64,000 bases of DNA from contig OZ253667.1 in the NCBI GenBank assembly GCA_965263235.1, positions 1,026,189-1,090,188 on the forward strand, given 5' to 3'. Below, piece after piece: positions 101 through 22,060 of this stretch. The notes under the pieces are model-generated. The model was not told where the DNA came from, made no database searches, and saw only the letters and a list, made by a program, of their open reading frames with translations. The translations under genes and the position numbers were made by a program. Positions within the stretch are counted from its first letter, which is position 1; the number at the start of each line of letters is the position of its first letter. This DNA comes from Pseudomonadales bacterium. GTDB lineage: Bacteria; Pseudomonadota; Gammaproteobacteria; Pseudomonadales; UBA7434.

Positions 101-2081
<1,981 letters not shown>

Positions 2082-2183
2082 CTTTTTAGCAGCCAAACAC
2101 ACTATGTTTAGGCGCTTAAATTTGGTTTCTCGCTCGCGTTAACGTCGAGAGGGCGCGCATAGTAGGTCTTGAGGAATGTGACG

Positions 2184-2651: not shown

Positions 2652-2876
2652 AATACGATTTCCTCTTACATCAAATCGATCAGCTGGGGAGTCTAGTCGA
2701 TTCAAAAAAAACTGACAAATCGGTGGGGTGGTCAACGAACGATTTATTAAAGTACCTCGTAAAAAGCACAGTTTAATTTTGTCTGTGTAAGGGAATGATG
2801 CATTTGGTATCTTATACAATTCAGCTTTCGAGTTAGCTTTTGGTCTCGCGCTGTACGCGGGCAGTTGTGAATTATC

Positions 2877-4073: not shown

Positions 4074-4096
4074 TCGACTGAATAGATAAGCTATCG

Positions 4097-6298: not shown

Positions 6299-7287
6299 CC
6301 GCCGAGGTAAAGACATTCTGTGAGTAAATTTTACAAGTAGATTTAGGCCTACCGCTTGAACTACAAAAGGAATTGTGTAATTATCGACCACATAATCTGC
6401 CACGTTGTTTGTGGTGAGCATATTCTTTTCCGCGACGAACATGTGTCGTTGCGTGTTACGTTAGGTGGTCCTGGTCGGCCTTAGCGTGAGGGAAAAGGTG
6501 CATTTGGTAGTCGTGGCGTTATATTCGTTGCCTCGGTTGTTGCTTGCTCGTTAACTGTTCAATATTTGCAGCAGTGCGGGCGGCAGTTTGTTTGTACCTG
6601 TTTCGTTCCTCCTCACGTTCTTCTTTCCCAGGCTTTCCTAATTGATACGTGTTTTTTGCGTGGGTATCTACGCAAATTGGCGTGCTGAATAGCAGCGCAT
6701 CTCCCCCTGTTGTGATGCTCTCAGCGCAACCAATATTTTTCATGAGGGCTTGCCTACGAATTTTGAATAGATATCTCGTAAGTTAGCGTCAATAGTTTTC
6801 GAGGGTTGTCCTGGTAGACCCGCTCGTCTTTATTGGCACTGCTTCGACCTACAGAACGTTTGCTTTACTCATCGCGCAGGCTTTGCATTCTTAGCTGCTA
6901 CCGTGTGGGGTAAGACGTTTAATAACGCCGGTCGCATTAGCGGTCGATTGGCTGTGGGTTGTTTTGTGGTGTCATCATCTACCAGTACTCCTCTTTAGAT
7001 AAATTAAAGGTGTAGCTCTAGCCTGGTCTATCGCTAGGGCTCTAATGCCGTCGGCTGTTTTACTGCACAGCATTCGTATGAGTGTTGGTGATCAGTTGAG
7101 GCTTTTTTTATTTTTTAGATCTCAGGAGGTCTTATCGCGCACCCCTACTAGTTTAAAAAATGCTTATGAAGCGTGCTTTGGTTCTGTGCACGTTGCGTCT
7201 TAATCAAATCTCCATAACTAAGGCTTTTGGCTATGTGGCTGTGTAACGCTGCGAGGCCTGCGTTTTGGTGATTTAGCTTGACTATAT

Positions 7288-7486
7288 ATGATAAAATTTT
7301 AACTGGTTTTTATATCTATCGTTGAATTTGTCGTTAAACGGTCACGCTGAAATTCTCGCTTTTTAAGCTGATAAAAGGCTCAGTAATGATTGTACCACCG
7401 AGCTAACCTGGAGCTATTTTTAATGTTTTTTGGGATTTTTTTCTCCAGGGTATTTCTTTTTTGTAAATAAAATGATAAAATTTTAA
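7288..7486. repeat. Two exact copies of the 15-mer ATGATAAAATTTTAA in an AT-rich ORF-free region
   Basis: The copies are at 7288-7302 and 7472-7486. The second lies ~25 nt upstream of the -35 element at 7511. Confidence 0.6.
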
Positions 7487-7510
7487 ATCTGGATTTTTTC
7501 AAAAAAAGTG

Positions 7511-7538
7511 TTGACACAGCCTGTAGACTGGTTAACAT
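7511..7538 (+). promoter_or_regulatory. Sigma70-like promoter candidate
   Basis: TTGACA (7511-7516), a 16-nt spacer, then TAACAT (7533-7538). No protein-coding ORF lies downstream. Confidence 0.4.
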
Positions 7539-7661
7539 TGTTCCCAAGTTTTAGTCGGTGTTGGCTCAATCACATTGTTAGGCGAGTTGATTGGCAACGC
7601 TTCCTAGTTTGAAGGCGTAGACGGCTTTTTGCTGGCGCGCTTGACGGTTTTAAACGCCAGT

Positions 7662-7810
7662 CGAGCCTTGCTGGGCTTCTCCAGGGGCCAAGGGGCAGCA
7701 GGGCTCGGCAGGCGATAAATTTTGATTTGATAGTAGTGGTTTTAACGTCAGCTGGACCCGTTGGGCTTCTCCAGGGGCCAAGGGGCAACGGGTTCCGGCA
7801 GACGATAAAA
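7662..7810 (+). ncRNA. Candidate structured RNA: two tandem hairpins with an identical 22-nt loop and covarying stems
   Basis: Hairpin 1 has stem cgagccttgctg / cagcagggctcg (7662-7707). Hairpin 2 has stem ggacccgttg / caacgggttcc (7754-7796). Both enclose GGCTTCTCCAGGGGCCAAGGGG and are followed by GGCAG(G/A)CGATAAA. The strand is uncertain. Confidence 0.35.
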
Positions 7811-7991
7811 AGGCAGGGATAAAGAATAATAAATGGAGTCTTGCTGGGTTTTAGCAGGCAGTTCAAATTTGTTGTTGCTGGTGCTGGTGTCACCACTGAA
7901 TTCATACCAGGCACTTTGATGCTCGAGGTTTTGTCATCAAGGTCAAGGGTATCGAGGTGGAGTTCGGTTTGAGTGGCGCCAGCAACAGTAT

Positions 7992-8018
7992 AAATAAGCT
8001 ATTAGCTTTTATTTTTTT
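7992..8018 (+). terminator. Weak intrinsic terminator candidate
   Basis: AAGCT-ATT-AGCTT is a short stem followed by TTTATTTTTTT. The stem is AT-rich and only 5 bp. Confidence 0.3.
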
Positions 8019-8460
8019 CGATTGCGTTTTTGCTTGGCTTGATTGGTGATGGCGTGCTCCGTTTTGAGTTTGTCACGACGTTTCCGCAACCAGCGGTTAA
8101 ATGACAGGATTAGGCGGTTTTGAGAGTAATGTAGTTATGTGGCAATGCGTTGCGGCGATGCGATTCCAGGGCTATTGTCTGGTCGCTATACGTTCAATTG
8201 TGCAAGAGTGATCGCACAAAAAAAGTACAAAAATGCTTGCTATATCCAAATGCGTTGTGTAGCATGTGATCCAGTCGCTAGACCTTACAGGATTTAGCGA
8301 TGACTTTTACAAGTTTAAAAAAGTAAAAACGCTGTAAAAAGCATTGTGAATCAAAGGTTTAGTAAAGCTTTAGGTTGACAAAAAGGTATTTTATTATAAC
8401 GGCTTGACTGACAGACTGTTGCTCAGCAAGAGGAGAACAATAAAGGCTGTACCTATTTAT

Positions 8461-8544
8461 CGATGTGAATCGACAATGCTTTCTTCGATGTGAATCGATG
8501 CTCAGGAAGAGGCTAATTATAATAATCGGTGTGAATCGACAATC
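8461..8544. repeat. Three direct copies of CG(A/G)TGTGAATCGA upstream of the first CTERM-protein gene
   Basis: cgatgtgaatcgacaat is at 8461, cgatgtgaatcgatgct at 8486 and cggtgtgaatcgacaat at 8527. Copies 1 and 3 share extended flanks. Confidence 0.6.
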
Positions 8545-8750
8545 AACAATTGGCTATTTAGCGGTACGGTCAAGTACAAAGCAATTCTTCACGGGGCAGA
8601 ATAAAATTGCTGCTGAGTGTGTTAGCTTGAGTTAAATAAAGACGTAACAATTAAGCGTCATACTTATTCCTCAGGTTAGTACTTGCAAGCGACTAGTTCG
8701 TTTGTCTTCTTAAAAAAGTAAAGTTTTTAAGCAAAATCGGAGTTTTAACG

Positions 8751-9467
8751 ATGAAAAAACAATTAAGCATTTTGGCGGGTTCAGTTCTGCTAGCTTCAGG
8801 TGCTCACGCAGCTACCGTTGGTGTTGGCGGAAATGCCGTAGCGGTTTTTGATACTGCTGGCGTAGGTACCTACATCATTGATACTGGTGTTACTGCCGAC
8901 GCTCTTGCAGCTGGTAATGGCTTCCAAATCGATGTGTCTGCAGCTTTAGCTGCACTTGGGTCAATTGATTCTTACGCAGTTCTAGGACTTACCACTCCTA
9001 CTGCAACAGGTTTATACAACTACGATTCAGGTTCTTACGTAGATGTTGGCGCTGGTGTTGTTTACGCTTCATCTACCGGTGGCGGTCCCGCAGTTAGTCA
9101 AAACAACACTGTTCTACAGACCGGTGGTGTAGCAACATACTTGAATAACGCTAATTTCGGCCTTAACGTAGATGGTTCTGGTGGAGATGCAAGTGGTTCT
9201 GCTGCAATACTCACTGGCTTTGGTGGCCTGTTGAACGCTGCCGGTGCATTATCCGGTCTGTTCGTACAGGATTCTGACTTTACGGGTTTAACTTCGTCGC
9301 CTGATGCGGTTACGATTCTGACTCCAACAGGCGCTATTGAAGGTGTTTATTTAGACGGTACAACTTTCAGTGCAACTGCTGTTGGTTCAACCGTGGTACC
9401 TGTGCCCGCTGCAGCCTGGCTATTTGGCTCGGCGCTTGTTGGTCTGGGCGTAGTTCGTCGCAGGTAG
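8751..9467 (+). CDS. Exported protein with a VPLPA/PEP-CTERM-like C-terminal sorting signal (paralog of 21108-21962)
   Basis: The signal peptide is MKKQLSILAGSVLLASGAHA/AT. The C-terminus VPVPAAAWLFGSALVGLGVVRRR has the motif, a hydrophobic helix and a basic tail. Confidence 0.8.
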   Translation: MKKQLSILAGSVLLASGAHAATVGVGGNAVAVFDTAGVGTYIIDTGVTADALAAGNGFQIDVSAALAALGSIDSYAVLGLTTPTATGLYNYDSGSYVDVGAGVVYASSTGGGPAVSQNNTVLQTGGVATYLNNANFGLNVDGSGGDASGSAAILTGFGGLLNAAGALSGLFVQDSDFTGLTSSPDAVTILTPTGAIEGVYLDGTTFSATAVGSTVVPVPAAAWLFGSALVGLGVVRRR

Positions 9468-9671
9468 TAAACTGCGAACTATCGTATGCTTTGTGGCTTA
9501 CTTGGTGAATATCTTTTTGTGTTGTTCATCCAGCTGTCACAAAGCTGCGGTAAAAAAGCAAAATAAAAGGGAGTTTCTGGTTGGACTGTCGTAGGTCTTC
9601 CAGTCAGGACTCCCATATTGATAGGGTCGTATAATTGGCTCTGAGAAATATTAAATTATGAGGTTATTACA

Positions 9672-10457
9672 ATGAAAATGACTAAACTCGCTGCAGCAAT
9701 GGCTGCAACCGTAGTTTCAGCAGCTCACGCTCTGGACTTCTCAACTGTTGACACTAATCCAAGCGGTACTGCTATCAATGTTGGTGCTTGCGCTATCGTT
9801 GCCGCGACTGATATTGCTGACGGCTTGCGTACTATTCAGGGCGGCGACGCAGCTTGTGCGGGTAGTACTGATGCGGCATGTGCGCCTTCATTATCTAGTG
9901 CTGAGCTCCGTGCTTTAGCTACTGGCGCTGTTAATAACGCGACAAACATCTTGGGTGACGGTGGAAACCTTGACGATGCGACAGGCATCAAAAAAGGTGC
10001 ATTGGTATTCAACATTGCTGATGGATGTGACAATGCTGTAAGAGCTTTCGCGGGTTCTTCAGCTGGTATTGGTGGCCTTTCTTGTGGTCAGGGTCCTGCG
10101 ACTTTAGCAACTGCCGGTAACGACGCTGCAGTTCTTGGTACACTTACCAACGGTCAATCTAACCACAGAATGGGTATTATCTCTTCTACTTCTTTGGCTG
10201 ATACCCACGCGTTTATCAAGCTTGATGGCGTAGCTCCAAGCGTTGAGGCAGTTGCTTCTTCAAACTACAATCTGGTTTCTAACCTGGCTGCGGCTGCAAG
10301 CGTTGCTGACAATACAACTAATGGCATTACTGTAGGTATCGTGGCTGCTGATTCTGGGAACGGTGTTGCTTATCACCAGGTGGCCGGTAACGCGGTAGGT
10401 TGTGCACCTCTCGCGCCTGGCGGTGCACTTACTGATGCAAACGGCGGCGCGCTTTAA
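9672..10457 (+). CDS. Exported Ala/Gly-rich, Cys-containing hypothetical protein
   Basis: The signal peptide is MKMTKLAAAMAATVVSAAHA/LD. The ORF is 261 aa, has no C-terminal anchor and is followed by a strong terminator. Confidence 0.7.
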   Translation: MKMTKLAAAMAATVVSAAHALDFSTVDTNPSGTAINVGACAIVAATDIADGLRTIQGGDAACAGSTDAACAPSLSSAELRALATGAVNNATNILGDGGNLDDATGIKKGALVFNIADGCDNAVRAFAGSSAGIGGLSCGQGPATLATAGNDAAVLGTLTNGQSNHRMGIISSTSLADTHAFIKLDGVAPSVEAVASSNYNLVSNLAAAASVADNTTNGITVGIVAADSGNGVAYHQVAGNAVGCAPLAPGGALTDANGGAL

Positions 10458-10534
10458 TAGAGCTAGCTATTCTCAATAGCAACGCCGATTTGAGCGATCT
10501 TTATAGACCTTTGTCCTAAAGAGTACGCTTGATT

Positions 10535-10570
10535 AAAAATACCCGCTCCGAAAGGTGCGGGTATTTTTGT
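10535..10570 (+). terminator. Rho-independent terminator
   Basis: aaaaATACCCGCtccgaaaggtGCGGGTATttttgt is a GC-rich stem followed by a T-run. Confidence 0.8.
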
Positions 10571-11178
10571 TGTGGGGAAGGCTTGCTCATATCTACACCC
10601 TGAGTTTGATAGATGCGAATATTGTTTGCTCCGCTATGGAGTGACCTGCTTTAAATAGCAGCACAGCCTTTATCGCTCTTAATAGCGTGTTACCTGAGTG
10701 TGTTTTGCGAGAGTTCGCGGGGTTTGAAGCTGATATCCTTATGGTGGTGATTTACGACGGTGATAAGGGAATGCCACAACCTTTTATTCCTGCGGGGCTG
10801 ATTTTGCTGAAAGTTAAAAGCACTATCAATAGAACCAGACTCGTGGGCGGTAAAAATATTTTGTGTCAGCTAGACACACTTCTATGGCTGTCGAAATTTT
10901 AGCATATCGGTTAGTTAAAAACGGCATTGATTGGCGAGTATAAACGGATCTTGGTTATACCCCTATGTTGCAGTAAAAGTAATAAACTAGGGTTTCCAGT
11001 TCAATCTTTTCCAACTTTGATAGGTAAATCAAAGTCTGTATTCATCTAGTCTCTACATTGGCGGCTATTTGCTAAAATCTGGTCTCGCCTGCCATAATTT
11101 TTGGTGGAAAAAATTAATAGTAATCAAATTTGAGTCTGAATCAGTTGAAATATTAGCACTCAGGTATTTAGTGGAAGT

Positions 11179-12366
11179 ATGAAAATTCGAACCCGCAATA
11201 CAGCGGTTGCGGCAGTTATTGAAAAGCTACATGAGAAAGTTTGCTATGAGGGCGGGGCTTATTTTGATGAGGCTCTTGAACTTGGTGTGAAAGGCTCAGA
11301 GCTCTCCTACAGTTTAGCTAGGAAAGTCCAGAATCAGCACCTGATGGTTTCCTTGCCTGTTTCTGTTATGCCTCAAATCGATCACTACAAATTTAGGCTA
11401 TCAAAAGATGGCTCTCTGAACGTTGATTCGATTGACTCTGATGCAACACCACTGCAGTCAGAAATAATGATGCTATCGCTTGAGCTGTTCAACTTGTTGG
11501 GCAAGGTTAGTCAGTTTGGTAAGGACTCCCCTCCAGTGCAGTTGAGTCAATTTCCCGAGTTACTAAATCTTCTGCTTACAGGAGGTAATGGCGCGGATTT
11601 GGCACAGCCGGCTGTCGAGGGGGACGAATCTCTGCGCATTGCGGCTTTCTGGCAGGCCCGGATGTTTTATGAGTTGAATTCTGAAGCGAATCGCAGCTTA
11701 CCTTTGTTAGAGTTTATGAATCACCATCTATTCGCCAATAACTTTAAGTATGACTTTAGGGGGGGTGGTAATCACATCCAATTGCACCATAAAAACCTTA
11801 TTGCAGGGCAAACATTTGCGCGCTATGAAATTATGGACGCGCTGCAGACTTTTGTGGTTTACGGCTTCGTGGATCAGAGTGCTTATTTTCTGCATTCGCA
11901 GAGTTTTGAGATGCCGTTAACGGATGGTCTTACACTTCAGGTTTCTTCACAGGCTGTTTGTAGTCATCAGAGTGATGTGCCTGATTGGAATCCCCCTCCA
12001 AAATTCCAAAACAGTTTCATGTATCGTTCTAAGCTACTGTATGGCTCATCGGGGCCCGTTATGCCCTATGCTATAGTTCCGCCGGGAAATCACATAGAGC
12101 CGTTTAAAGAAGCCACATTGGCCCAATTGGAAGAAATTGAGAGGCATTACGGGCTTGAAAAAGGCGCTATTAATAATGAAGAAGTTTATGATAGGTTTTT
12201 GAGGACCTTATATAGCGAAAACCTGGCATTCTACAAAAAATTGTTGGCAGAGCTGCGAACCATTGATTTCAAGTTGGTTGAGAAAAACTCCATGGTACCA
12301 AGCCAGTTTAAAGTTTTGATGGATAAACAGAGAGGTATATTAAGGGGGTTTGCAAAGTGCTTCTAG
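11179..12366 (+). CDS. Hypothetical protein with a SET-domain-like core (Rubisco-LSMT/SETD-like pattern)
   Basis: LPLLEFMNHHLFANN resembles the NHxxxPN-like block. IAGQTFARYEIMDALQTFVVYGFVDQ follows the pattern GEx(I/F)xxYGxxSNxxLLxxYGFV. There is no signal peptide. Confidence 0.5.
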   Translation: MKIRTRNTAVAAVIEKLHEKVCYEGGAYFDEALELGVKGSELSYSLARKVQNQHLMVSLPVSVMPQIDHYKFRLSKDGSLNVDSIDSDATPLQSEIMMLSLELFNLLGKVSQFGKDSPPVQLSQFPELLNLLLTGGNGADLAQPAVEGDESLRIAAFWQARMFYELNSEANRSLPLLEFMNHHLFANNFKYDFRGGGNHIQLHHKNLIAGQTFARYEIMDALQTFVVYGFVDQSAYFLHSQSFEMPLTDGLTLQVSSQAVCSHQSDVPDWNPPPKFQNSFMYRSKLLYGSSGPVMPYAIVPPGNHIEPFKEATLAQLEEIERHYGLEKGAINNEEVYDRFLRTLYSENLAFYKKLLAELRTIDFKLVEKNSMVPSQFKVLMDKQRGILRGFAKCF

Positions 12367-12412
12367 CCTTTAGTACGTAGCTTCAAAAAAAGGATTCTCT
12401 AAACGATGGGTA

Positions 12413-12997
12413 TTAGTCAAAGGCATGGCTTTTAAACTTGATACCTCCTTTTCGAAGTGAGACGGTATCCTCAAATGTCTGAGTATGGATATAACCCGAT
12501 CGATCGAAGAGCCAGGTACCGTCCATTAGTTTCATATAAGAGCGCAAATGCGCACGTTCAACGGTGTTACCTAGAACCGGAGACCATGCGTCATATGTCC
12601 CTATGCAGTCTATATAAAGTGAATTTCTGCTTAAGACTTTCAATTCGAAAGATTCACAGTCCATACCTTTCATAATATAGTGATTGGCAGAGTAGACAAG
12701 GCGATACCAGCCCCTCTGAGTATATAGTTTTTCAGCGCTAGCCTTAGTGTAAAATGTGCTTAGGTCGTTTGTATTCTCTATTTTTTTAGCTAGTTTCGCG
12801 AAGTGTATAAATTGCTTTGCTGCAGGGTGTTTTCTGGTTGCCTTGTTCATTGCCGTATTTGACCAGTGGTCTGCATTAAAGGTGGCGCATCCGCTAAAAA
12901 TAAAAGCGAAACATAATGATGCAGTTAGCCGAATAAGCGTTCCACTATTATAGTTCGTAAGGGGTCGTGTGTGTGTTTTGAGGTAAAGTTTCTGCAT
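12413..12997 (-). CDS. Putative lipoprotein
   Basis: The N-terminal hydrophobic stretch ends in the lipobox-like FIFSGC. The ORF is 194 aa. Confidence 0.55.
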   Translation of the reverse strand: MQKLYLKTHTRPLTNYNSGTLIRLTASLCFAFIFSGCATFNADHWSNTAMNKATRKHPAAKQFIHFAKLAKKIENTNDLSTFYTKASAEKLYTQRGWYRLVYSANHYIMKGMDCESFELKVLSRNSLYIDCIGTYDAWSPVLGNTVERAHLRSYMKLMDGTWLFDRSGYIHTQTFEDTVSLRKGGIKFKSHAFD

Positions 12998-13216
12998 GGC
13001 CTGGTTCGTGAGTAAAACCTGATTTGTCGTCTATTGAGATGATTGAATTGGCAAGCGAGCAACATACTAGTAAAGAAAGTATATTTCAAGACGGTGGGCT
13101 TGCTGTATACATATTGCGTTGTAAAACAATCTATGCCCTCTTATGTTGCGTTGAGTGTAGCGTCGATGAAGAAGGGCATGAACTAAACGAGTTGTCTAAT
13201 ATTTTGAGTTTATTGC

Positions 13217-14875
13217 ATGTCTCTGGTGAATAAAAAGCTCATAGCTACGGCTAGTCCAAAAAATGCTGAAAAGGCAAGAAAGCGGCTGGATGGTACAAGA
13301 ATTACAATCAGCCTTTTTGCGAAACCGGCGCAGGAAATGACCTGCGCAGAAGCAATTACCTATGCTAATTCACTTTTGGCAGAAGGTGATCCGCATTCAG
13401 CATTGTCGATAGCAGACCAGCTGCTGGAAATTCAGGATCAGATAATCGATATTTACCTATTAAAGGTAAGGGCTTTGCTGGATCTTGAAGCGCTGTATGA
13501 ACTGGACTCTCTTATTGAAGAGTTGCTAGATGTGGCTCCGGACAATATTGGAGTGTTAGTTAACGCATCGCGCTTCTATCTGTTGTTGGGGCGTGTCAAA
13601 GAAGCGTTTTCCGCACTAAAGAAAATCAATGAAATCAGTCCAAATCGAATAGAAACCTTTTCGCAGATGGCGTTGTGCTACAGGTACTCGGGAGCTGGTG
13701 ACAAAGCTATCAAGTTGCTTGAGCGAAGCATCGGCCAGGTTTGGAAGAGAAGGTTTAGTGACGAAGAGCGTAATGCTCAATATCGATCAGTTTTATTTCG
13801 TTATGCTGGATATAAGCACGTTGAAGGAGAGATGCGGCAGGATCTGGAGAACTTCGCGGGTTCTGGTGATGACAGGATTGCTGCTTCGGCTGCCTATGCG
13901 TTGGCTCAGCAAAGCCTGTTTGAGAAAAACATTCAAGATGAACAGCGATATCTTGTAATGGCTAATTTGTCTGAGAATAAATACACAACCCGTGGAGTTG
14001 AGCTCAAACACTATCTTAATGAGTATGAGCGTGTTCGAAAGCTGCATGCTTCTCTCTTTGCTTCTTCACAACCCGAATGGCTTGAGTCTGAGTTTGATAG
14101 TGATTTTAGCCCAATTTATATCTTGGGTTTGCCAAGGAGTGGAACGACTTTAATGGAGCAGATATTGGGAGCTAGCTCAAAAATAGGACAAACGGGAGAG
14201 TCAAAGGGGTTTTCACTCGCTGTCGAAAAAGCTTTTCTAACGCATCAGCCAGCTTTTGTAGGTAGCCCACATCCGGAAGACATCAACCGTCTGCCTATGT
14301 CTGCTTTTCATGAGATCGCACGTTACTATGAGCGACACCAAAGTGTCATGACGAAGAAGTATATGTATATTGATAAGGAGCTGTATAACTTCAACTATGT
14401 TGGGTTGATGGCGGTGCTTTTTCCAAAGGCAAAGTTTATTCACATGAATCGAGCTCCAATGGATATATTCCTGAGTTGCTTTAAAAATAGCATCCCTGGT
14501 GTGCATGCGACTTCTGACCTGGTGCATATGGCTGAATACTATGTTCACATGAAAAAGCTCATAGGGCACTGGAAGACTGTTTTTGAAGATCGTATATTTA
14601 TAATGAACTACCGTGACTTGGTAGAAAGACCCGAAGATAGTACTCAGCAAGTGGTTGATTATTTAGGTATTGGTCTTGAGAACGATATGCTTAAGTTTCA
14701 TGAGCGAAAAAACGTTGTTCGAACGCTTAGTGTGGATCAAGTGCGCCAAAAAATATATACATCTTCTATCGAAAAGTGGCGTAAGTATGAGGTTATGTTG
14801 GCGCCCGCGAGAGCTAGGCTAGAGGAGTTGGGTGTTCCCATAGAAGGGGTTTCGTACATTAACAAAGACAGTTAA
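13217..14875 (+). CDS. TPR-repeat protein fused to a TPST-like (Sulfotransfer_3-type) sulfotransferase
   Basis: The N-terminal ~280 aa has TPR-like helical repeats. The PAPS 5'-phosphosulfate loop is YILGLPRSGTTLMEQILG. The C-terminal block is RTLSVDQVRQKIYTSSIEKWRKY. Confidence 0.85.
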   Translation: MSLVNKKLIATASPKNAEKARKRLDGTRITISLFAKPAQEMTCAEAITYANSLLAEGDPHSALSIADQLLEIQDQIIDIYLLKVRALLDLEALYELDSLIEELLDVAPDNIGVLVNASRFYLLLGRVKEAFSALKKINEISPNRIETFSQMALCYRYSGAGDKAIKLLERSIGQVWKRRFSDEERNAQYRSVLFRYAGYKHVEGEMRQDLENFAGSGDDRIAASAAYALAQQSLFEKNIQDEQRYLVMANLSENKYTTRGVELKHYLNEYERVRKLHASLFASSQPEWLESEFDSDFSPIYILGLPRSGTTLMEQILGASSKIGQTGESKGFSLAVEKAFLTHQPAFVGSPHPEDINRLPMSAFHEIARYYERHQSVMTKKYMYIDKELYNFNYVGLMAVLFPKAKFIHMNRAPMDIFLSCFKNSIPGVHATSDLVHMAEYYVHMKKLIGHWKTVFEDRIFIMNYRDLVERPEDSTQQVVDYLGIGLENDMLKFHERKNVVRTLSVDQVRQKIYTSSIEKWRKYEVMLAPARARLEELGVPIEGVSYINKDS

Positions 14876-14900
14876 GCGGCAAGTTGATTCGGTTTTTTAT

Positions 14901-16400
14901 ATGAGTAGTTCTGGTAACAAGTATGAGCGGGTCGAAGAAGCTATAAATACAGGTAAATATCGACTTGCGCTTAGGATGCTTGTTGCTGTTACAGAAGATG
15001 CGCCCCCAAAAAAGCTCGATCAAACAGGATTGTTATATCGCATTACGATCTATAATCGGCTGCAGTGGCTGCCAGAGGGAATGGAGTTGTTGGAGCACTG
15101 TATCGCGAAAGCAGGCAGTAGCTGTGAATTAAATCTTGAGATAGCGTTATTCTTCATGCTTTTAGGGCGATCATGTGATGCCGAACGCTTCTTTCGATTA
15201 GCTTTAGATGCTGATCCCACTAGCGCACTTATTATTACTGAGTTAGCAATACTTTATGAGCAGCGTGGCGATTCGGATCAGGCATTAAAAATATATAATA
15301 GAGTTTTTTCACGTGGAATTAGGCGTGGACGCGCGGATGCAGTGTTTGCAAGGGCTCTGGCTCGCTTGACTGGGTTGCGTGAGCTAACGGGTGATGAAGA
15401 GAAAGCAGTTCTAAAGTTTATAAAATCGGGGAAAGGAACGTCGCTCGAAACACACTTGTACTTTTCGATGGCAAAACACTATGGCCGTAAGAATAACTTA
15501 GACAAGCAGCTGCAATTTTTGAAGATCGCAAATGACCTTGCTTATGCTGAAGACCGCGCGGGGCCGGGAGAGTATTCGGCTAGCCTGGCCAAGGAGCAGC
15601 TTTTGGCTCTAAAGCGAATGTTCAAGCAGCCGAGACCAGATTGGATGCCTGTAATTAACGCTGGCCAGAATCAGTATCTCTTTGTGCTCGGTATGCCGCG
15701 TAGTGGTACAACATTGATTGAGCAGATACTTGGAGCGCATTCAAGGGTCGGCAATACGGGAGAATCCCGAGCGTTACAGATAGCCTTGTCGAGGTTCTCG
15801 CCAGCTAAGCATGAAGGGAGGGTGGTAAACAGCAAGCTTTTCGAGCATTTCAGGCTGATGAGTGGCAGAGACTTTAATGAGGCCGTAAAATATTACCAAC
15901 AGTATCAACGCTTGCTCTCTGCATCAGAGATTGTCACCGACAAGGAATTGAATTGCGTTAACAGGGTGGGGCTTTTGGCTAATATGTTTCCTAGAGCAAA
16001 GTTTATCGTTATAAAGAGACATCCCCTTGATGTAGCGGCCAGCCTTTTACAGCACTATTTTAAAAATGCGACCTACTCTACTAGGGGGCTTAATTGTGTG
16101 CTTGAGCATGAACACTATTATGCGAAGGTGGATTTTTGGAAGGAGCTCTATTCGGAGAAATTTATAGAGGTCAATTATGAGTCGCTTGTTTCTAAGCCTG
16201 AGGAAAGTATAAGAGCGATGTTGGAAAAAATTGATTTGGATTGGGAGCCGGGGTTGTTAAGGTTTAATGAGAGGACAAACTCGGTGAGGACACCTAGCCT
16301 GAGCCAAGTCCGCTTAGGGTTGAACACAGCGGCAGTAAACAAGTGGAAAAATTTTTCCGAAATGCTTGGCCCGGCTATTGAATATTTAGGTATCAAATAA
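14901..16400 (+). CDS. TPR-repeat protein fused to a TPST-like sulfotransferase (paralog of 13217-14875)
   Basis: It has FVLGMPRSGTTLIEQILG and RTPSLSQVRLGLNTAAVNKWKNF. The architecture matches the upstream gene. Confidence 0.85.
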   Translation: MSSSGNKYERVEEAINTGKYRLALRMLVAVTEDAPPKKLDQTGLLYRITIYNRLQWLPEGMELLEHCIAKAGSSCELNLEIALFFMLLGRSCDAERFFRLALDADPTSALIITELAILYEQRGDSDQALKIYNRVFSRGIRRGRADAVFARALARLTGLRELTGDEEKAVLKFIKSGKGTSLETHLYFSMAKHYGRKNNLDKQLQFLKIANDLAYAEDRAGPGEYSASLAKEQLLALKRMFKQPRPDWMPVINAGQNQYLFVLGMPRSGTTLIEQILGAHSRVGNTGESRALQIALSRFSPAKHEGRVVNSKLFEHFRLMSGRDFNEAVKYYQQYQRLLSASEIVTDKELNCVNRVGLLANMFPRAKFIVIKRHPLDVAASLLQHYFKNATYSTRGLNCVLEHEHYYAKVDFWKELYSEKFIEVNYESLVSKPEESIRAMLEKIDLDWEPGLLRFNERTNSVRTPSLSQVRLGLNTAAVNKWKNFSEMLGPAIEYLGIK

Positions 16401-16402
16401 TT

Positions 16403-17959
16403 ATGTGGTTCCCAGCAAGAATTAAGGAAGTAGATAGTGTTGACATCAATCCAGCACTAGATTTTCTAGCGACCTTGTCTGCAGAAGACTGGGCTGGTGG
16501 AGAGGCACTTAAACAAAAATTGGCGGGTAGCAGACCAACTCAGTCGATATTTCTTTATTCGCTTACCAGGGAGGAGCTTTTTGACACTTTATCGAAGCGG
16601 CCGTTGAGGCAAGAGGATGTGCCCAGGCTTGCGGGTTTTAATAATTATTACCCGAGCTTAGCTTATTTGTTTGATAAGGTGAGGGAACATTATTCAAAGG
16701 ATGGGGTTTTCGTCAGAGCGCAGTTGGCTAAGATGGGGCCTGGCGCCAAGATTGATCCACACCGTGATTCTTTTTTTATACTAGAGAACAGCCACCGCAT
16801 TCATATTCCTCTAGTTACAACAGAGAAGCTTCAGTTTGTCGTCGACGATGAGCTAGTAAGGATGGATGCAGGGAAAATGTATGAGCTCAATAATCAGGTT
16901 ATGCATTGGGTTAATAATCCAAAGGACTCAATCGATAGAATACACTTGATTATTGATTACTTGCCTCCTGAGTATAATGTTCCGCAATCGCTTGCAGCGG
17001 ACTTTAAATTCTACATAAAGAAGCACAGAGCGGGTCGCCCTGTGCGACTACCGATAAAAGATGTTAGTTACCCAGAGTTGTTGGTGTCTGTATCTTGTGG
17101 AGCAATTAACAGATTATATTTATTTGACCTTGATAAAGAGAGTCTGCGGCCGGCTCAGTTGCAGCCGGGTAAAAATAGTACTGAAGTGTTAGATGTTGGG
17201 AAAATACTTTCTCTTAAATGCGTGGACAAAGAATTCGCTGCGCTGCAAAAAGATCAGCTAGTGGTTTTTGATAAGGATCTTAAAATCAAGGGTGTGTATA
17301 AAAACTCTCATTTAAAAGGCGCTTGCTCAATGTTTGTAGACGGGAGGTTTTCTTATGTGGCCTGTTCAGGCTGTGATGGGGTTTTAAGGTTTAATTTTCG
17401 CAAGAAGGTTTTCGATAAAGGGTGGCGACTAACCGTTAATGAAGAGAATGGAGCAGTGTGTATTACGGAGTTTTGCCCAAGCGATACGGATACAAAAAAT
17501 CTGTGTAACCAGTATGGTGTTAACGCGGGGTGGATGGATCGGGACAAATTGGTGGTTGGTTGTGCTAAGTTCGATAAACTTATCCACTATCAGGATGGAA
17601 AGGCTAGAGCGGTGGAACAGCTGCATCTAGGAGCAGAAAATGCACAGCCTTATAACAAAGGTATTCTGTATAGCAGTGCAGATCACCAGCACGTGGTCTA
17701 TTCAGCGAACTATGATTACAGGCAGGTTGATCTGGAGTCCGTGCCAGGGTTAATGATCGCGGCAGAACGTGTAGGTTTGTCTCTTGCCGGGAAGCAAGGT
17801 AGCTGTTTGCTGAGGCATCTAAAAGGCACAACATTGTTTGCAGTTGGTTCGAAAATCTTAGTGCTCGATATGAAAAACCAAGCTGTTGTTAGAGTTTTTG
17901 ATGTTCCTTTGGAGCGCTCATCGAGTATTTCAAGTATGATGGTTTGGTCTGCTCGCTAG
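16403..17959 (+). CDS. Aspartyl/asparaginyl beta-hydroxylase-like domain fused to a ~300-aa unknown C-terminal domain
   Basis: PGAKIDPHRDSF..SHRIHIPLVT..AGKMYELNNQVMHWVNNP..RIHLIIDY fits the HxD...H 2OG-oxygenase pattern of the Asp_Arg_Hydrox family. The start codon is 2 nt after the upstream stop. Confidence 0.8.
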   Translation: MWFPARIKEVDSVDINPALDFLATLSAEDWAGGEALKQKLAGSRPTQSIFLYSLTREELFDTLSKRPLRQEDVPRLAGFNNYYPSLAYLFDKVREHYSKDGVFVRAQLAKMGPGAKIDPHRDSFFILENSHRIHIPLVTTEKLQFVVDDELVRMDAGKMYELNNQVMHWVNNPKDSIDRIHLIIDYLPPEYNVPQSLAADFKFYIKKHRAGRPVRLPIKDVSYPELLVSVSCGAINRLYLFDLDKESLRPAQLQPGKNSTEVLDVGKILSLKCVDKEFAALQKDQLVVFDKDLKIKGVYKNSHLKGACSMFVDGRFSYVACSGCDGVLRFNFRKKVFDKGWRLTVNEENGAVCITEFCPSDTDTKNLCNQYGVNAGWMDRDKLVVGCAKFDKLIHYQDGKARAVEQLHLGAENAQPYNKGILYSSADHQHVVYSANYDYRQVDLESVPGLMIAAERVGLSLAGKQGSCLLRHLKGTTLFAVGSKILVLDMKNQAVVRVFDVPLERSSSISSMMVWSAR

Positions 17960-18025
17960 CTTTTCTGCTGCATAGTGATATTGTGTTTTAGCCGCGGCTA
18001 GTAAATTGGGAGAACAGAGTTTGCC

Positions 18026-18583
18026 ATGAAAGTATTCGGTATAGGTTTCCATAAAACAGGCACAACAAGTTTGGCTCAGGCGCTGCGATCGCTGGGGTAT
18101 TCTGTTACCGGCCCTAACGGTGTTAACGATCCAAATATAGCAAACAATGCATTAGCCATAGCTAACAAGTTGGTTTGGGAATACGACGCCTTTCAAGATA
18201 ATCCCTGGCCGATTCTTTATAAAGAAATGTACCAGCAGTTTCCTGATGCCTATTTTATCGCGACATTTAGAGATCCAGAAAAGTGGATTAATAGTCTTTT
18301 GAGGCACTTCGGCTCTAATAGTACACCTATGCGAAGCTGGATCTATGGTGTGGGTTGCCCAAAGGGAAACGAAGGTATCTATTTGGAGAGATACAAGCGT
18401 CATTATTTAGAGCTTGATAAGTTCTTTAAGGAAAAACAGAAAAGTATATTAAAGATGAACCTTGAGAAAGGGCATGGTTGGGAGAGGCTCTGTACTTATC
18501 TCGGTGTTGAGATACCAGATAAACCCTTTCCACATGCTAATAAGGCGAGTGCAAGAGAGCGTCGTCAACCACATCAGCGCTGA
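18026..18583 (+). CDS. Small sulfotransferase family protein
   Basis: MKVFGIGFHKTGTTSLAQAL is an N-terminal P-loop-like PAPS motif. The ORF is 185 aa. Confidence 0.7.
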   Translation: MKVFGIGFHKTGTTSLAQALRSLGYSVTGPNGVNDPNIANNALAIANKLVWEYDAFQDNPWPILYKEMYQQFPDAYFIATFRDPEKWINSLLRHFGSNSTPMRSWIYGVGCPKGNEGIYLERYKRHYLELDKFFKEKQKSILKMNLEKGHGWERLCTYLGVEIPDKPFPHANKASARERRQPHQR

Positions 18584-18611
18584 TTTGCTTTAGAGTCCCT
18601 GATTGAACAAA

Positions 18612-19415
18612 ATGGCCAAAAAAAAAATTGATCTCATTATCACAGGTATGCCCCGTAGCGGAACTAGTTTCTTATGTTCTAGAGTTAATGAGATGGAGAA
18701 TGCCGTTGTAGTTAATGAGCCGCAAGAGGTGTTTGGTGAGCTGAGAAGAGAAGGAATTGATGGTGTTTCTCGCTTGTTTGCAAGTTATAGGGAACGAATT
18801 ACCACAGGTGTGGCAGTTCCAAATAAAATCAAAGACGGAAAATTTATAGAGGATACGTCGTACGAAGATAGTCGTTCAATGCATGTTCATAAGGTTGATG
18901 ATCACGAGTTTCTATTGGGCATAAAAAATACGCTAGTGTTTATGTCGATTTTAAATCAACTGGTACGTAATAAAGCTGTCGACTATATTATGGCTAGTGT
19001 CAGGCATCCTTTGGATTGTATTGCTTCGTGGCATAAGGTGTCATTCCCGCATTTGAATTCGGCCAAGCCAGAGTTTCTTTCTGATTTTGCAGTGGGTAAG
19101 TTTTCAACCAGGCTTAATAGATTGTTGTCTGAGGATGATCTTTATGTTCGATCAGCAATGCTATGGCAACTTTTAGCTCAAACGTTGCTGGCCGAAAAAA
19201 GTAAAATCCATTTGGTTCGCTATGAGGATATAGTTAGAAGGCCTAATGATGCTTGCAAACATATTAGTAGATATCTTGGTCTGAATGAGCGGGCTCAAGA
19301 CCGCTCTGCTTCTAAGCCTATTCGTAGGCGATCATTATTACCGGGGGATAAGCAAGAGTTGATATATGCCATTTGTAAGAAAGAAGCAGTTCAGCTTGGT
19401 TACAAAAACGGTTAG
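18612..19415 (+). CDS. Sulfotransferase family protein
   Basis: It has the motif IITGMPRSGTSFLCS. The ATG at 18612 is preferred over the TTG at 18603. Confidence 0.7.
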   Translation: MAKKKIDLIITGMPRSGTSFLCSRVNEMENAVVVNEPQEVFGELRREGIDGVSRLFASYRERITTGVAVPNKIKDGKFIEDTSYEDSRSMHVHKVDDHEFLLGIKNTLVFMSILNQLVRNKAVDYIMASVRHPLDCIASWHKVSFPHLNSAKPEFLSDFAVGKFSTRLNRLLSEDDLYVRSAMLWQLLAQTLLAEKSKIHLVRYEDIVRRPNDACKHISRYLGLNERAQDRSASKPIRRRSLLPGDKQELIYAICKKEAVQLGYKNG

Positions 19416-19496
19416 TTAATGTTATTACATAATTATTATGTGGGATAAACTCCGTTCTTTTTTGAGTTGTATTTATTAGTATAAATAGTGCTTAAA

Positions 19497-20039
19497 ATGA
19501 TTATTCAGAAGAATTTTTTGGCCGACAATAAACGTATAGCGTTGAGAGATCATGCAATGCGTTTATATAAAAATGGATTGATGGAAAATAATTACACCCA
19601 GTATCGTTATATTTTGCCGATCTACAATACACCTCATGCGAATGCTATAGTCAAAAGCGTTGAAGCGCCTATCCGGGGTAGGCTGAGAGCGTTTGATGTT
19701 CAACCTGATCCTTTACTTGGTTGGGTTATTTCGCTTATCAAACCTGGGGGAAGAATCCATATGCATCGCGATAATTGCGATCATTATTCAGAGTCAGGTA
19801 GACAGCATTTAAGATGCAACGTAGTTGTTTCTAAAAACCCGGACTCTGGTAATCCAATAGTAGAGGATCAAACCTATGTTTTAAGGGAGGGGGATTTATG
19901 GGCTTTTTTTGCTCACAGCAACGTGCATGGCTGTGAAGTTGTAGACGGTAAAAAGCCCCGAATTATTTATCAATTCGGCTATTCGGTAGCGGTTGATAAA
20001 CTCGAAGATCTTAGTGCCTGTTTTGCTGCTGATTCTTAG
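19497..20039 (+). CDS. 2OG-Fe(II) oxygenase / Asp-beta-hydroxylase-like cupin
   Basis: KPGGRIHMHRDNCDH...LRCNVVV...SNVHGCE is an HxD...H arrangement. The start is uncertain (GTG 19488 or ATG 19497). Confidence 0.6.
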   Translation: MIIQKNFLADNKRIALRDHAMRLYKNGLMENNYTQYRYILPIYNTPHANAIVKSVEAPIRGRLRAFDVQPDPLLGWVISLIKPGGRIHMHRDNCDHYSESGRQHLRCNVVVSKNPDSGNPIVEDQTYVLREGDLWAFFAHSNVHGCEVVDGKKPRIIYQFGYSVAVDKLEDLSACFAADS

Positions 20040-20122
20040 CGGATGTGTTCTTGTCAGTTTATTTTATTTATAAGAGCAAATACTAATTCACAAGTCTTAT
20101 TAGCAGGAAGTTGAGTTTGATA

Positions 20123-20881
20123 ATGAGCGCCCACAAAAATTTAGTCGTCTTGATCTGTCTAGGTGATAAAAATCACAATGTAGACCTGACATTATTATCG
20201 CTGCAGTCTATTCGAAGGGTATCAGGCTTCGACGGTGACGTACTGCTTTTTACAGATTTCGACCGTGACATAGAAAGTTTGAATAAGCTGCAAGTCAAAA
20301 GAGTGGTGGTGCCTGCTGGGGCCATTGAAGATCCAAGAAATTTTAGAATATATATGCATCAGTATTACGACTTTGCGCAGCACGAAACAATACTTTATAT
20401 GGACTTTGATATATTGGTGCTAAAGGGGTTGGCACCGGTGTTTAGAAAGATAGAAAGTAACCATGTATACTTCTGTTACGCTCCTAAGCAGCCTTGGGAC
20501 AACTACGATGCATTTGGTGCAAATGAATACATCGCAAAATATATGAAATCCCCGATAGTAAGTGCTTCTCCCACTGGTATATGCTCTGGTGTTTTTGGAA
20601 TAAAGTCTAGAAAGTTAAAAAGTATGTTAAAGAGTTGGGAGAAAGTTTTAGCGAAAACCCCTTCCAATAATGATCAACACGCTTTTAATAGCCTTTTGGT
20701 TAAGCAGGGATATCCTTGCCGACCACTTCCTAATGAGTGGTTTGAGTACCCTATGCAAAAACCAGACGCTAGAGAGCTGCGTTCGCGGGATCATTTTATT
20801 TTCTATCACTACAACCCTGTTCCCAATCATATGAAGCTTGCCCGTATGTCAGAAGATTTTATCTTGGCCAGTGCTCATTGA
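20123..20881 (+). CDS. Nucleotide-diphospho-sugar (GT8-like) glycosyltransferase
   Basis: ILYMDFDILVLKGLAPVF is a DxD-type block like the GT8 motif YLDaDiivl. The ATG at 20123 sits behind an AGGAAG Shine-Dalgarno-like site. Confidence 0.55.
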   Translation: MSAHKNLVVLICLGDKNHNVDLTLLSLQSIRRVSGFDGDVLLFTDFDRDIESLNKLQVKRVVVPAGAIEDPRNFRIYMHQYYDFAQHETILYMDFDILVLKGLAPVFRKIESNHVYFCYAPKQPWDNYDAFGANEYIAKYMKSPIVSASPTGICSGVFGIKSRKLKSMLKSWEKVLAKTPSNNDQHAFNSLLVKQGYPCRPLPNEWFEYPMQKPDARELRSRDHFIFYHYNPVPNHMKLARMSEDFILASAH

Positions 20882-21107
20882 GCGGGTCGGGCTATTATGA
20901 AAACGGATTTGAGCGTATCGGCTGCATAGCGAGTATAGAAAATTAACCAATAATAATGCCCGCCTTTGATAGGGGCATCGGGGAAAAGAGAGTTTGGCCT
21001 ATTCGGCCAGAGCAATGCTAATTACAAATATTTTCGTACTTATTCATAGCACTATTAGCCCTTTTTGTTTGTGTCTTTTTTGGGTGGGTTTTTAAGTGTC
21101 AATCTAT

Positions 21108-21962
21108 TTACTGATTCTCAGTTGTGATGTGAGAACTTCCCTTTCGTTTGATCATGATTAGGCTAGAGCACGCGGATAAGAACAACCAAGCAGCACCGGG
21201 TATTGGTATTACGGCTGCGCCTTGAAAGCCTTGCACAGTTAATATGTTGTTGCTCAAAGATATGTGATGGTTGTATGAAGCAGTTACAAACACTAAGCAC
21301 TCGTCTACGCTCTCGTAAAAAGTTGCACCCTCACCTTCTGTGCACCACAACTCATCAACGACCGAAGGTGTAAACACGGTTTGTTCATTCTGCGCTGTGC
21401 TTACGCCAGTCGTTTGGTATTGATGAAAGTGCCTGGTATTTGGTCGTGATCCCAGTAGGTCACTAAAGCTGTTCAGGAATCCATTTCCAAGGCCAAAAAC
21501 AATCGGCGCTCTGTTATCCAGGTCTCCAAAGGTTCCTTCTCCATTCCAGCCAAAAGATGCATTTGCAATAGTGGCAGCGGTATTAAAGGTTGCAAACTGT
21601 AGCTGGCTGTTAGTCCTCAATGGTTCAGGAACGGTCTGTGCGTAAACAAGTCCTGCACCAGGGTCGACATATGCGTATTCGTCATAATTATATACTGTGG
21701 TAGCGTATGGCGTTGTGCGTCCAAGTATCATGAATGATTCAATCGATCCACCCAATGCTGAAAACGCAGCACTAATGTCCAGGCTGAAGCCAGTCCCCGT
21801 TACGAAATCATCAGCGCTTACACCAGTGTCATAAAGAAAAGATCCCATACCGAAGGTGTTGAAACCTACGACCATATTATCACCAGGCTGGAAAGGGATA
21901 GCTTGTGTATTTGAAGCTAACAGTATTGAGCTTGCTAGAGTGGTAAATGTTTTTTTAAGCAT
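21108..21962 (-). CDS. Exported protein with a VPLPA/PEP-CTERM-like C-terminal sorting signal (paralog of 8751-9467)
   Basis: The signal peptide is MLKKTFTTLASSILLASNTQA/IP. The C-terminus is VIPIPGAAWLFLSACSSLIMIKRKG. The N-terminal two thirds align by eye with 8751-9467. The start was set at the second ATG, which lies behind a GGAG. Confidence 0.8.
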   Translation of the reverse strand: MLKKTFTTLASSILLASNTQAIPFQPGDNMVVGFNTFGMGSFLYDTGVSADDFVTGTGFSLDISAAFSALGGSIESFMILGRTTPYATTVYNYDEYAYVDPGAGLVYAQTVPEPLRTNSQLQFATFNTAATIANASFGWNGEGTFGDLDNRAPIVFGLGNGFLNSFSDLLGSRPNTRHFHQYQTTGVSTAQNEQTVFTPSVVDELWCTEGEGATFYESVDECLVFVTASYNHHISLSNNILTVQGFQGAAVIPIPGAAWLFLSACSSLIMIKRKGSSHITTENQ

Positions 21963-22060
21963 CCGATTTGCTCCAGCAAACATGTTTTGTGTTTAGTATT
22001 ATTTTTATCGCTCGGGCTTAACCGCCCACCGATACTCCATATTACTCGAAGTTTATTGCA

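Follow-up and report, generated by a model that had tools for sequence, protein, structure and literature searches.

Closest described systems

Extracellular recognition in animals and plants depends centrally on protein tyrosine sulfation; in bacteria, to our knowledge, this modification has been documented for essentially one peptide, RaxX. In Xanthomonas, Y41 of RaxX is sulfated by RaxST, a cytoplasmic enzyme encoded by the adjacent gene (PMC4646787). In the current study we analyzed a 64,000-nt stretch of DNA from a Pseudomonadales bacterium (contig OZ253667.1; the whole stretch is referred to as the window), in which the genes for two secreted proteins, designated CT1 and CT2, border an island of putative modification enzymes. 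The original prediction for this DNA was that a tyrosine-rich block common to CT1 and CT2 is a plausible target of two sulfotransferases of the island, designated STA and STB. We found that phenylalanine never takes the place of Y91 or Y96, two tyrosines of the block, in the subfamily, and that the CT proteins and the enzymes travel between strains as one cassette. We estimate the probability of tyrosine sulfation within the block at roughly 0.35, and we lean towards the view that the island enzymes act on the CT proteins.

The locus resembles the RaxX/RaxST pair in that a cytoplasmic PF13469 enzyme, similar to the tyrosylprotein sulfotransferases (TPSTs), is encoded beside a candidate secreted substrate with a conserved putative acceptor tyrosine, and RaxX is modified before export. 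RaxX, however, is a leader-bearing peptide of ~60 aa that is exported by a dedicated type I secretion system with a peptidase-containing ATP-binding cassette transporter and has a single tyrosine with Asp at position -1. The CT candidates, in contrast, are folded Sec substrates of ~200 aa with an exosortase-type tail and no acidic residue at -1. Unlike RaxST, the island enzymes carry N-terminal tetratricopeptide repeats (TPRs), and the island encodes no transporter. The solved proteins most similar in sequence to STB and STA are TPST1 and TPST2, whose catalytic motifs align with those of the island enzymes, but the TPSTs are type II membrane enzymes of the Golgi lumen, lack TPRs and prefer acidic, unstructured sites.

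An AspH-family dioxygenase and sulfotransferases are likewise combined with secreted non-enzymatic proteins in the operons described by Iyer, Abhiman, de Souza and Aravind in 2010 (PMC2938197). The substrates proposed there are Gly-rich proteins, tail-collar or collagen-like, and PhyH-methyltransferase fusions occur; the island contains no such fusion and no tail-collar or collagen-like domain, and differs in its candidate CTERM substrates, its TPR-fused sulfotransferases and its strain-variable cassette. The CT proteins share with PEP-CTERM/VPLPA-CTERM cargo (Haft et al. 2006, PMC1569441; TIGR03370) a signal peptide and a C-terminal motif, helix and Arg/Lys cluster. CT1, however, scores 24.8 bits against the VPLPA-CTERM model TIGR03370 (cutoff 25.35), CT2 is unmatched by this model, and the mature CT domains match no Pfam or NCBIfam family. 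Replacement flexible genomic islands, such as those of the Alteromonas glycotypes (PMC4898812), also occupy the same site between conserved flanks and have deeply divergent alleles in conspecific strains; the cargo of the present island consists of exosortase-type proteins, sulfotransferases and hydroxylases, not of glycan synthesis genes. As in replacement islands and in the islands for pilin and flagellin glycosylation, a surface structural protein is co-inherited with modification genes, with the breakpoint inside the conserved 5′ end of its gene. The pilA-accessory gene alleles of P. aeruginosa are an example of the pilin type.

The components of the locus, namely PF13469 sulfotransferases, AspH-like dioxygenases, exosortase-type tails and replacement islands, are already known. 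What is new is a CTERM family with two hydroxyl-constrained tyrosines that brackets a swapped cassette of TPR-TPST-like and AspH-like enzymes, a combination not found in the literature searched; nor did that literature contain work linking exosortase/PEP-CTERM cargo to sulfotransferases in this sense. The genomic context is of greater interest than the motif by itself.

CT1, CT2 and their tyrosine block

CT1 and CT2 read inward from the two ends of an island of ~13 kb. The relevant features are as follows.

8751..9467, plus strand: CT1, 238 aa, secreted, left border of the island; signal peptide, beta-rich domain and VPVPAAAWLFGSALVGLGVVRRR sorting tail
9015..9065, plus strand: tyrosine block of CT1, residues 89-105, translating to YNYDSGSYVDVGAGVVY; a peptide of this region that carries Y89, Y91 and Y96 is TATGLYNYDSGSYVDVGAGVVYASS
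9021..9023, plus strand: codon for Y91 of CT1
9036..9038, plus strand: codon for Y96 of CT1
9396..9464, plus strand: C-terminal sorting signal of CT1, VPVPAAAW followed by a transmembrane helix and RRR
21108..21983, minus strand: CT2, 291 aa, paralog of CT1, right border of the island
21642..21692, minus strand: tyrosine block of CT2, translating to YNYDEYAYVDPGAGLVY
21684-21686, minus strand: codon for Y100 of CT2, equivalent to Y91 of CT1
21669-21671, minus strand: codon for Y105 of CT2, equivalent to Y96 of CT1
21141..21209, minus strand: C-terminal sorting signal of CT2, IPIPGAAWLF...IKRK

Database gene calls start CT2 at M8, giving 284 aa. The two proteins are 36% identical (BLASTP, E 6e-48), a similarity that marks them as true paralogs. 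When a 19-residue window was slid along the pair, conservation was highest in the tyrosine block (13/19 identities), followed by the segment directly upstream of it (12/19) and the C-terminal sorting tail (11/19). The statement that this block is the best-conserved part of the two paralogs was therefore correct, as were its coordinates and peptides. It holds four of the eight tyrosines of CT1 and five of the ten of CT2. Because the DNA of the two blocks has many synonymous differences, their similarity is due to purifying selection acting on the protein, as opposed to a recent gene conversion.

Both proteins begin with a signal peptide, and their C-terminal end consists of [VI]P[VI]P-AAWLF followed by a hydrophobic helix and a cluster of Arg/Lys. 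The family tail follows the pattern VPxPAAAWLF...RRK, and its columns are invariant in the alignment. Read from the sequences and this alignment, the combination of signal peptide, C-terminal motif, transmembrane helix and basic cluster is the VPLPA-/PEP-CTERM architecture. A word-indexed search recovered 36 full-length relatives, and a profile search of 1.84 billion cluster representatives gave 35 matches at E<=1e-30 and 115 at E<=1e-10; weaker matches number in the thousands and have the tail alone in common. The genomes that bear CT proteins are marine metagenome-assembled genomes (MAGs) of the Pseudomonadales/Cellvibrionales type (Halieaceae, Porticoccaceae and others), and in related genomes the identical tail is found on hundreds of unrelated proteins. 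No exosortase was present among the window open reading frames (ORFs) scanned. The CT proteins thus appear to be an undescribed family of surface proteins that are exported by Sec and carry a VPLPA/PEP-CTERM-type tail. Carriage of the family by phages was rejected, as IMG/VR contains no full-length member.

In order to determine which residues of the block are constrained, we counted the columns in an alignment of 58 subfamily sequences, whose consensus is [YF]-N-Y-[DST]-E-x-x-Y-V-[DSE]-x-G-G-G-L-V-[YFT]-A-G. The counts at the four tyrosines were as follows.

Column 89: Tyr in 39, Phe in 10
Column 91: Tyr in 46, Phe in 0
Column 96: Tyr in 53, Phe in 0
Column 105: Tyr in 32, Phe in 9, Thr in 9

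Free exchange of Tyr and Phe was observed in five other aromatic columns of the domain (41, 75, 89, 105 and 130). Y91 and Y96 thus pass a Tyr-not-Phe test that Y89 and Y105 fail, and since columns 91 and 96 never contain Phe while the other aromatic columns swap, the hydroxyls of Y91 and Y96 are under selection. Y96 is Tyr in 98% of 41 island-type sequences versus 0/7 in the clade without the island, and is the best single candidate acceptor. Most of the remaining block (V97, G100, G102 and L/V at 103-104) is structural. Position 90 is Asn or Asp in 43/58 sequences, with Ser in some members, and position 93 is Glu in 36/58. No basic residues lie near Y91 or Y96.

The island-less relatives (L002, L026, L019, L064, L011 and P0036-38) read GPPAxGxSLxNSGVV in place of the block, and sulfotransferase and AspH genes are absent from the flanks of the five island-less CT loci examined. 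Two other known modification motifs were considered for the block. The AspH consensus of epidermal growth factor (EGF)-type domains is C-x-[DN]-x4-[FY]-x-C; around N90...Y96 the spacing is wrong and cysteines are lacking. An N-glycosylation sequon (N-Y-S/T) was rejected, position 92 being Asp in many members.

We also obtained an AlphaFold2 model of CT1 from the family alignment (mean predicted local distance difference test (pLDDT) 86, predicted template modeling score 0.78). It consists of a beta-rich domain and one long helix, for which Foldseek found no solved analogue. In the model the tyrosine block occupies strands 85-90, 95-99 and 102-107, each with pLDDT >90, and on this prediction it is the signature beta-hairpin of the CT family.

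A second acidic motif specific to the subfamily, with the consensus N-G-E-G-S-L-G-D-F-D, lies further downstream (CT1 D146 and S148, at 9186-9194). D146 is conserved in 93% and D148 in 86% of the sequences, and island-less relatives do not have the motif, which may bind a metal or serve as an Asp-hydroxylation site.

Sulfotransferases and other genes of the island

The genes between CT1 and CT2 are listed below.

9672..10457, plus strand: 261-aa secreted protein of no known family, directly after the CT1-type gene in 13/13 loci that reach this position
11179..12366, plus strand: 395-aa protein of unassigned function without a signal peptide, present in most alleles and absent in L086 and the P0011 contig
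12413..12997, minus strand: 194-aa predicted lipoprotein, conserved in the island
13217..14875, plus strand: STA, TPR + Sulfotransfer_3, 552 aa
14901..16400, plus strand: STB, TPR + Sulfotransfer_3, 499 aa, found in all islands whose sequence extends this far
16403..17959, plus strand: large AspH-like 2-oxoglutarate/Fe hydroxylase, 518 aa
18026..20881, plus strand: accessory genes that differ by allele, comprising the following four
18026-18583, plus strand: Sulfotransfer_4
18603-19415, plus strand: Sulfotransfer_1/3
19488-20039, plus strand: small AspH-like protein
20111-20881, plus strand: nucleotide-diphospho-sugar transferase

STA and STB match PF13469 with 109 and 120 bits, both above the gathering cutoff of 27 bits. 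The best solved relatives of STB are TPST1/2 (E 3e-8, ~20-25% identity), and STA matches TPST2 at E 2e-3. When STB is aligned to TPST1, the 5′-phosphosulfate-binding motif PRSGTT, the catalytic Glu (GE[ES]), the Lys (DKE) and the Arg/Ser of the 3′-phosphate-binding motif (R..S) are all found, and PRSGTT and GES[KR] are kept in 22/22 STA and STB orthologs recovered, down to ~33% identity. The two neighbors had been described as TPR-TPST-like enzymes, and this assignment is supported, including the motifs for 3′-phosphoadenosine-5′-phosphosulfate (PAPS) and the catalytic Glu. TPRs of the SPINDLY/OGT type were among the sequence matches of STB. Fusion to TPRs is typical of protein-directed enzymes, for instance ASPH. 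TPR-fused PF13469 sulfotransferases are common in Proteobacteria, and we know of none with an assigned substrate. The island enzymes have no signal peptide while the CT proteins have one; STA and STB are predicted to be cytoplasmic.

The large hydroxylase consists of an N-terminal 190 aa matching PF05118 (47 bits) and a 320-aa C-terminal domain without a known family; its closest solved relative is L-proline cis-4-hydroxylase (E 7e-5). The two domains are encoded by separate genes in L054. Altogether the island encodes four sulfotransferases belonging to three Pfam families, two hydroxylases and one nucleotide-sugar transferase, and a scan of it revealed no genes for sugar-nucleotide synthesis, flippase, polymerase, polysaccharide export, non-ribosomal peptide synthetase (NRPS) or polyketide synthase (PKS). 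The 395-aa protein has no Pfam match and only 4 homologs, and its structure model (pLDDT 43) was unusable. The 261-aa protein shows the motif F-x-K-L-D-G-V-x-P...S-x-N-Y...S-N-L together with conserved cysteines, reminiscent of periplasmic anion-binding proteins; its assignment as PstS-like was dropped for want of Pfam support.

Co-inheritance and exchange of the cassette

A TPR-sulfotransferase lies beside one to three CT paralogs in 12/12 loci with enough flanking sequence, mobile-element loci excepted. The gene order CT, 261-aa protein, (395-aa protein), lipoprotein, STA, STB, AspH was found in L080/L001, L083, L087, L088, L003, L169 and L171; in L083 both STA and STB are present and frameshifted, in a 3x long-read contig. 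At its far end the island terminates in a CT2-type gene abutting nrdB in L084 and L085, as in the window, and the CT2 orthologs P0042 and P0043 hold the same place next to nrdB. Extra CT paralogs are found inside the island in L086 (three copies) and L087 (two). STA and the 395-aa gene are missing in L086 and the P0011 contig, an absence that coincides exactly with the clade that has lost residues 89-93 of the block.

A general link of TPR-sulfotransferases to any protein with this tail was tried and rejected: among ~150 unrelated tail loci such an enzyme was found only at L013/L104 and L054, so that the link is specific to the CT family. L054 (6149-11717, Candidatus Litorirhabdus singularis) has a cluster made up of a TPR-sulfotransferase of 660 aa, an unrelated tail protein of 214 aa and an AspH-like gene; split from the latter, and in the same cluster, is a 307-aa gene that matches the C-terminal domain of the 16403 protein. 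At L013/L104 (Halieaceae MAG), a second TPR-sulfotransferase adjoins another unrelated tail protein.

The island was compared with that of conspecific strains.

8814..22000: hypervariable replacement island, with its left breakpoint in the signal-peptide codons of CT1 and its right end just before nrdB (22119)

Positions 1752-8814 of the window, which contain YchJ, an acyltransferase, a DinG-like helicase, an intergenic region of 2.45 kb and the first codons of CT1, are 97% identical in nucleotide sequence to the conspecific contigs L083 and L087. Within the signal-peptide codons of CT1 this identity falls from 97% to undetectable, and beyond the breakpoint the same genes follow in the same order, with their proteins only 26-47% identical to the conspecific alleles. 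Such a contrast between flanks and island identifies a hypervariable cassette that is exchanged. The conspecific strains showed the left junction only; the right junction, at nrdB, was observed solely in other species. The site, between the helicase and nrdB, is the same in several taxa. In L088 the flanks are ~70-75% identical to the window and the island proteins 48-70%. This island is closer than the conspecific islands despite its divergent flanks, and the phylogeny of the island is thus decoupled from that of the genome. The flank proteins share 90%-identity clusters with the L083/L087 contigs, whereas none of the island proteins clusters with any other among 15 billion sequences. The GC content is 0.39-0.44 in the island versus 0.47-0.53 outside. 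The conserved 5′ end of CT1 looks like a recombination anchor for cassette exchange, and surface protein and modification enzymes are, judging from these comparisons, moved as one unit.

Irrespective of the chemistry, the locus is a clean replacement island in which the exchanged unit is a surface protein with its modifiers and not a glycan pathway, and it bears on how marine bacterial populations keep surface diversity. It also offers a testable pairing of enzyme and substrate, consisting of two TPR-sulfotransferases and a small folded protein, for which natural alleles can serve as controls.

Evaluation of tyrosine sulfation in the block

Sulfation of the block by the island enzymes is favored by the co-inheritance in 12 loci, by the absence of the block where the island is absent and by the constraint on Y91 and Y96. 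The most credible acceptors are Y91 and Y96: these residues alone require their hydroxyl and are specific to the island subfamily, and the constant enzymes resemble TPSTs. The claim that the tyrosines of the block are enzyme targets is accordingly narrowed to these two, and gains no support for Y89 and Y105.

Several observations weigh against sulfation. No acidic residue is found at -1 of any conserved Tyr; this residue is Asn before Y91 and variable before Y96. Acidic residues are few, with two inside the block of CT1 (D92, D98) and three in CT2, and one or two in CT1 and two or three in CT2 within +/-5 residues. They are also only semi-conserved: position 92 is Asp, Ser or Thr and position 98 Asp, Ser or Glu, and both are often Ser/Thr. 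The tyrosines had been described as flanked by Asp/Glu, with the invariance of this pattern in orthologs named as a check and exposed segments as the sites that TPST-type enzymes favor. Acidic residues are indeed present in the block, but the pattern is not invariant, as Y89 exchanges with Phe and Y105 is not conserved, and the block is confidently predicted as three consecutive beta-strands and not as an exposed loop. The lack of an acidic -1 residue and the predicted structure of the segment weaken the claim of a canonical sulfation motif; the block may still be sulfated by a bacterial TPR-TPST. A cytoplasmic enzyme would meet the CT pre-protein unfolded, before Sec export.

The distribution of the block also has features that speak against sulfation. 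About 15 further columns, including D146 and D148, are specific to the same clade, and the contrast between sequences with and without the island may represent one phylogenetic split. The clade of P0011, P0016 and P0031-33, with the three paralogs of L086, keeps the operon and has lost residues 89-93, with G-Y-[AVS]-D-[AP]-G as the remnant of the block. As regards the expectation that operon-bearing orthologs keep the motif, Y91 and Y96 are never Phe, but this one clade lacks the YNY-x-E half. The link of STA to that half comes from this single clade at two loci (L086 and the P0011 contig). In addition, L091 and L170 carry an intact block in mobile-element contexts with no sulfotransferase or island enzyme nearby. 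In L170 (2347-3213) the CT gene occurs with a terminase small subunit and an integrase, a mobile or prophage-like context, and in L091 (2740-4987) with a primase-like ORF and two unrelated proteins having the variant tail IPIPTTAWLFGSALAGLLVARRK.

Finally, the enzymes themselves are compatible with other substrates. The CurM sulfotransferase is the next-best solved match to STB after TPST1/2, and PF13469 also includes sugar and beta-hydroxyacyl sulfotransferases. The presence of an AspH-like gene in 6/6 islands read to the far end, and in two others, suggests a different chemistry. Such a gene is listed for the window, L003, L080, L083, L084, L085, L086, L087, L088 and L171, and no locus was shown to lack one.

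The explanation that competes best is that the block is a structural or ligand-binding hairpin, whose tyrosines form hydrogen bonds or hold a ligand, for instance an exopolysaccharide, and that the enzymes modify other residues of the CT proteins, the 261-aa protein or the lipoprotein. A strict requirement for the Tyr hydroxyl is equally expected for such a site. The predicted hairpin, the glycines and hydrophobic residues that are its invariant neighbors (G100, G102, V97, L103, V104), the semi-conserved acidic flanks, further conserved residues specific to the subfamily (D61, D146 and D148 among them) and the motif-bearing copies without adjoining enzymes are all consistent with it, and the 261-aa protein and the lipoprotein are as constant across alleles as the CT proteins. 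On the other hand, the other aromatic columns of the fold swap Tyr and Phe while 91 and 96 never do. The island-less relatives keep the fold with the block replaced by GPPAxGxSLxNSG, and so the tyrosines are dispensable for the fold as such. We consider this explanation somewhat unlikely.

A quite unlikely alternative, in our estimate, is that the enzymes act on a glycan, a lipid or a small metabolite and that the CT genes are neighbors merely because both belong to a strain-variable surface island. It would account for the number of enzymes, since four sulfotransferases of three Pfam families, a sugar transferase and two hydroxylases exceed the needs of one protein site; NoeE-like and CurM-type enzymes are among the relatives within PF13469, free proline is the substrate of the solved protein closest to the hydroxylase, and glycan replacement islands are the known norm in marine bacteria (PMC4898812). 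However, the island contains no sugar-nucleotide synthesis, flippase, polymerase, exporter, NRPS or PKS genes, both constant sulfotransferases bear protein-binding TPR domains, and one to three CT paralogs lie within or border every allele. The least probable scheme, in which the AspH-like enzymes beta-hydroxylate Asn/Asp of the CT proteins (N90, D92, D98 or D146/D148) and the sulfotransferases then O-sulfate the product, agrees with the prevalence of AspH-like genes, with Asn/Asp at position 90 and the conserved D146 and D148, with the beta-hydroxyl-sulfating CurM enzyme as second-closest solved relative and with what Iyer et al. 2010 (PMC2938197) predicted for other hydroxylase-sulfotransferase operons of bacteria, but position 90 is Ser in some members, the EGF-type consensus is absent, TPST1/2 are nearer to STB than CurM is, and the Tyr-not-Phe constraint is left unexplained.

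Returning to tyrosine sulfation, the following scheme can be drawn up. The TPR domains would capture the unfolded pre-protein in the cytoplasm, and the TPST-like domains would then move sulfate from PAPS to Y96, a step that we assign to STB, the universal enzyme. STA would sulfate Y91 and possibly Y89, consistent with its being missing where that half of the block is lost; this division of labor, with STA acting on Y89/Y91 and STB on Y96, is hinted at by a single clade. The hydroxylases probably would also modify the unfolded CT proteins in the cytoplasm. Sec export and folding would follow, and then anchoring or release by an exosortase encoded elsewhere in the genome. HMW1C and TibC are precedents for cytoplasmic modification of Sec/autotransporter cargo. 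Allelic cassettes would in this way give rise to strain-specific surface chemistry. The CT proteins as substrates, Tyr as the acceptor and the timing before export are all inferred.

Taken as a whole, it is improbable that marine Gammaproteobacteria have a cassette whose cytoplasmic TPR-TPSTs, ahead of Sec export, sulfate two conserved tyrosines in surface proteins sorted by an exosortase, and we put this reading forward tentatively. If it is true, the cassette would be only the second bacterial tyrosine-sulfation system after RaxX and the CT proteins the first cell-surface proteins of bacteria with sulfated tyrosines, and allelic sets of enzyme and substrate would diversify surface chemistry, for instance against phages or grazers.

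Upstream region

The 2.45 kb preceding CT1 (6299-8750) contain no ORF, and in all related loci the CT gene is likewise preceded by a long gap without genes. Two segments of this region, 7868-7993 and 8191-8545, are 72-86% conserved across genera, a level equal to that of the coding flanks. A sigma70-like site is located at 7511-7538. Two hairpins are predicted as follows.

7639-7728, plus strand: hairpin, minimum free energy -41 kcal/mol (z -3.7)
7730-7818, plus strand: hairpin, minimum free energy -38 kcal/mol (z -3.9)

A hairpin of ~60 nt is repeated 2-7 times in tandem at a distance of ~0.4-1.7 kb from CT-family genes, upstream of them and always on the gene strand. The array was also found in L080, L082, L083, L086, L087, L088, L003, L002, L026, L064, L011, L035 and L137. 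The apical 26 nt (TGGGCTTCTCCAGGGGCCAAGGGGCA) are invariant, while the lower stem covaries, with compensatory double changes in 9/24 pairs. Using a covariance model over 1.5 Mb of loci, we found the hairpin solely near CT-family genes, including those of the clade without the island. No Rfam family matched within the 2.45-kb region, hairpin included. Judged by this pattern of covariation and conservation, the element is probably an undescribed structured RNA, and the upstream tandem array may control the system. Pairing of the invariant hairpin loop with the 5′ region of CT1 was tested and rejected, being weaker than 99% of background windows.

Three copies of TCGrTGTGAATCGA are present at 8454-8543, ~210-300 nt upstream of the CT1 start, with spacings of 25 and 41 nt. 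They form a candidate binding array for a regulator.

Mobile elements in the window

A large serine recombinase (Resolvase/Recombinase/Zn-ribbon) is encoded at 101-1849, left of YchJ, where L083 and L087 have an AhpC/Redoxin gene; this region is probably a second strain-specific insertion. At the junction, a 123-nt tandem repeat (2.4 copies, 97% matches) extends over 1795-2085. Downstream of pheST, a cluster of mobile elements at 38218-42263 consists of a tyrosine integrase, an IS3-type rve transposase and an IS110-family transposase.

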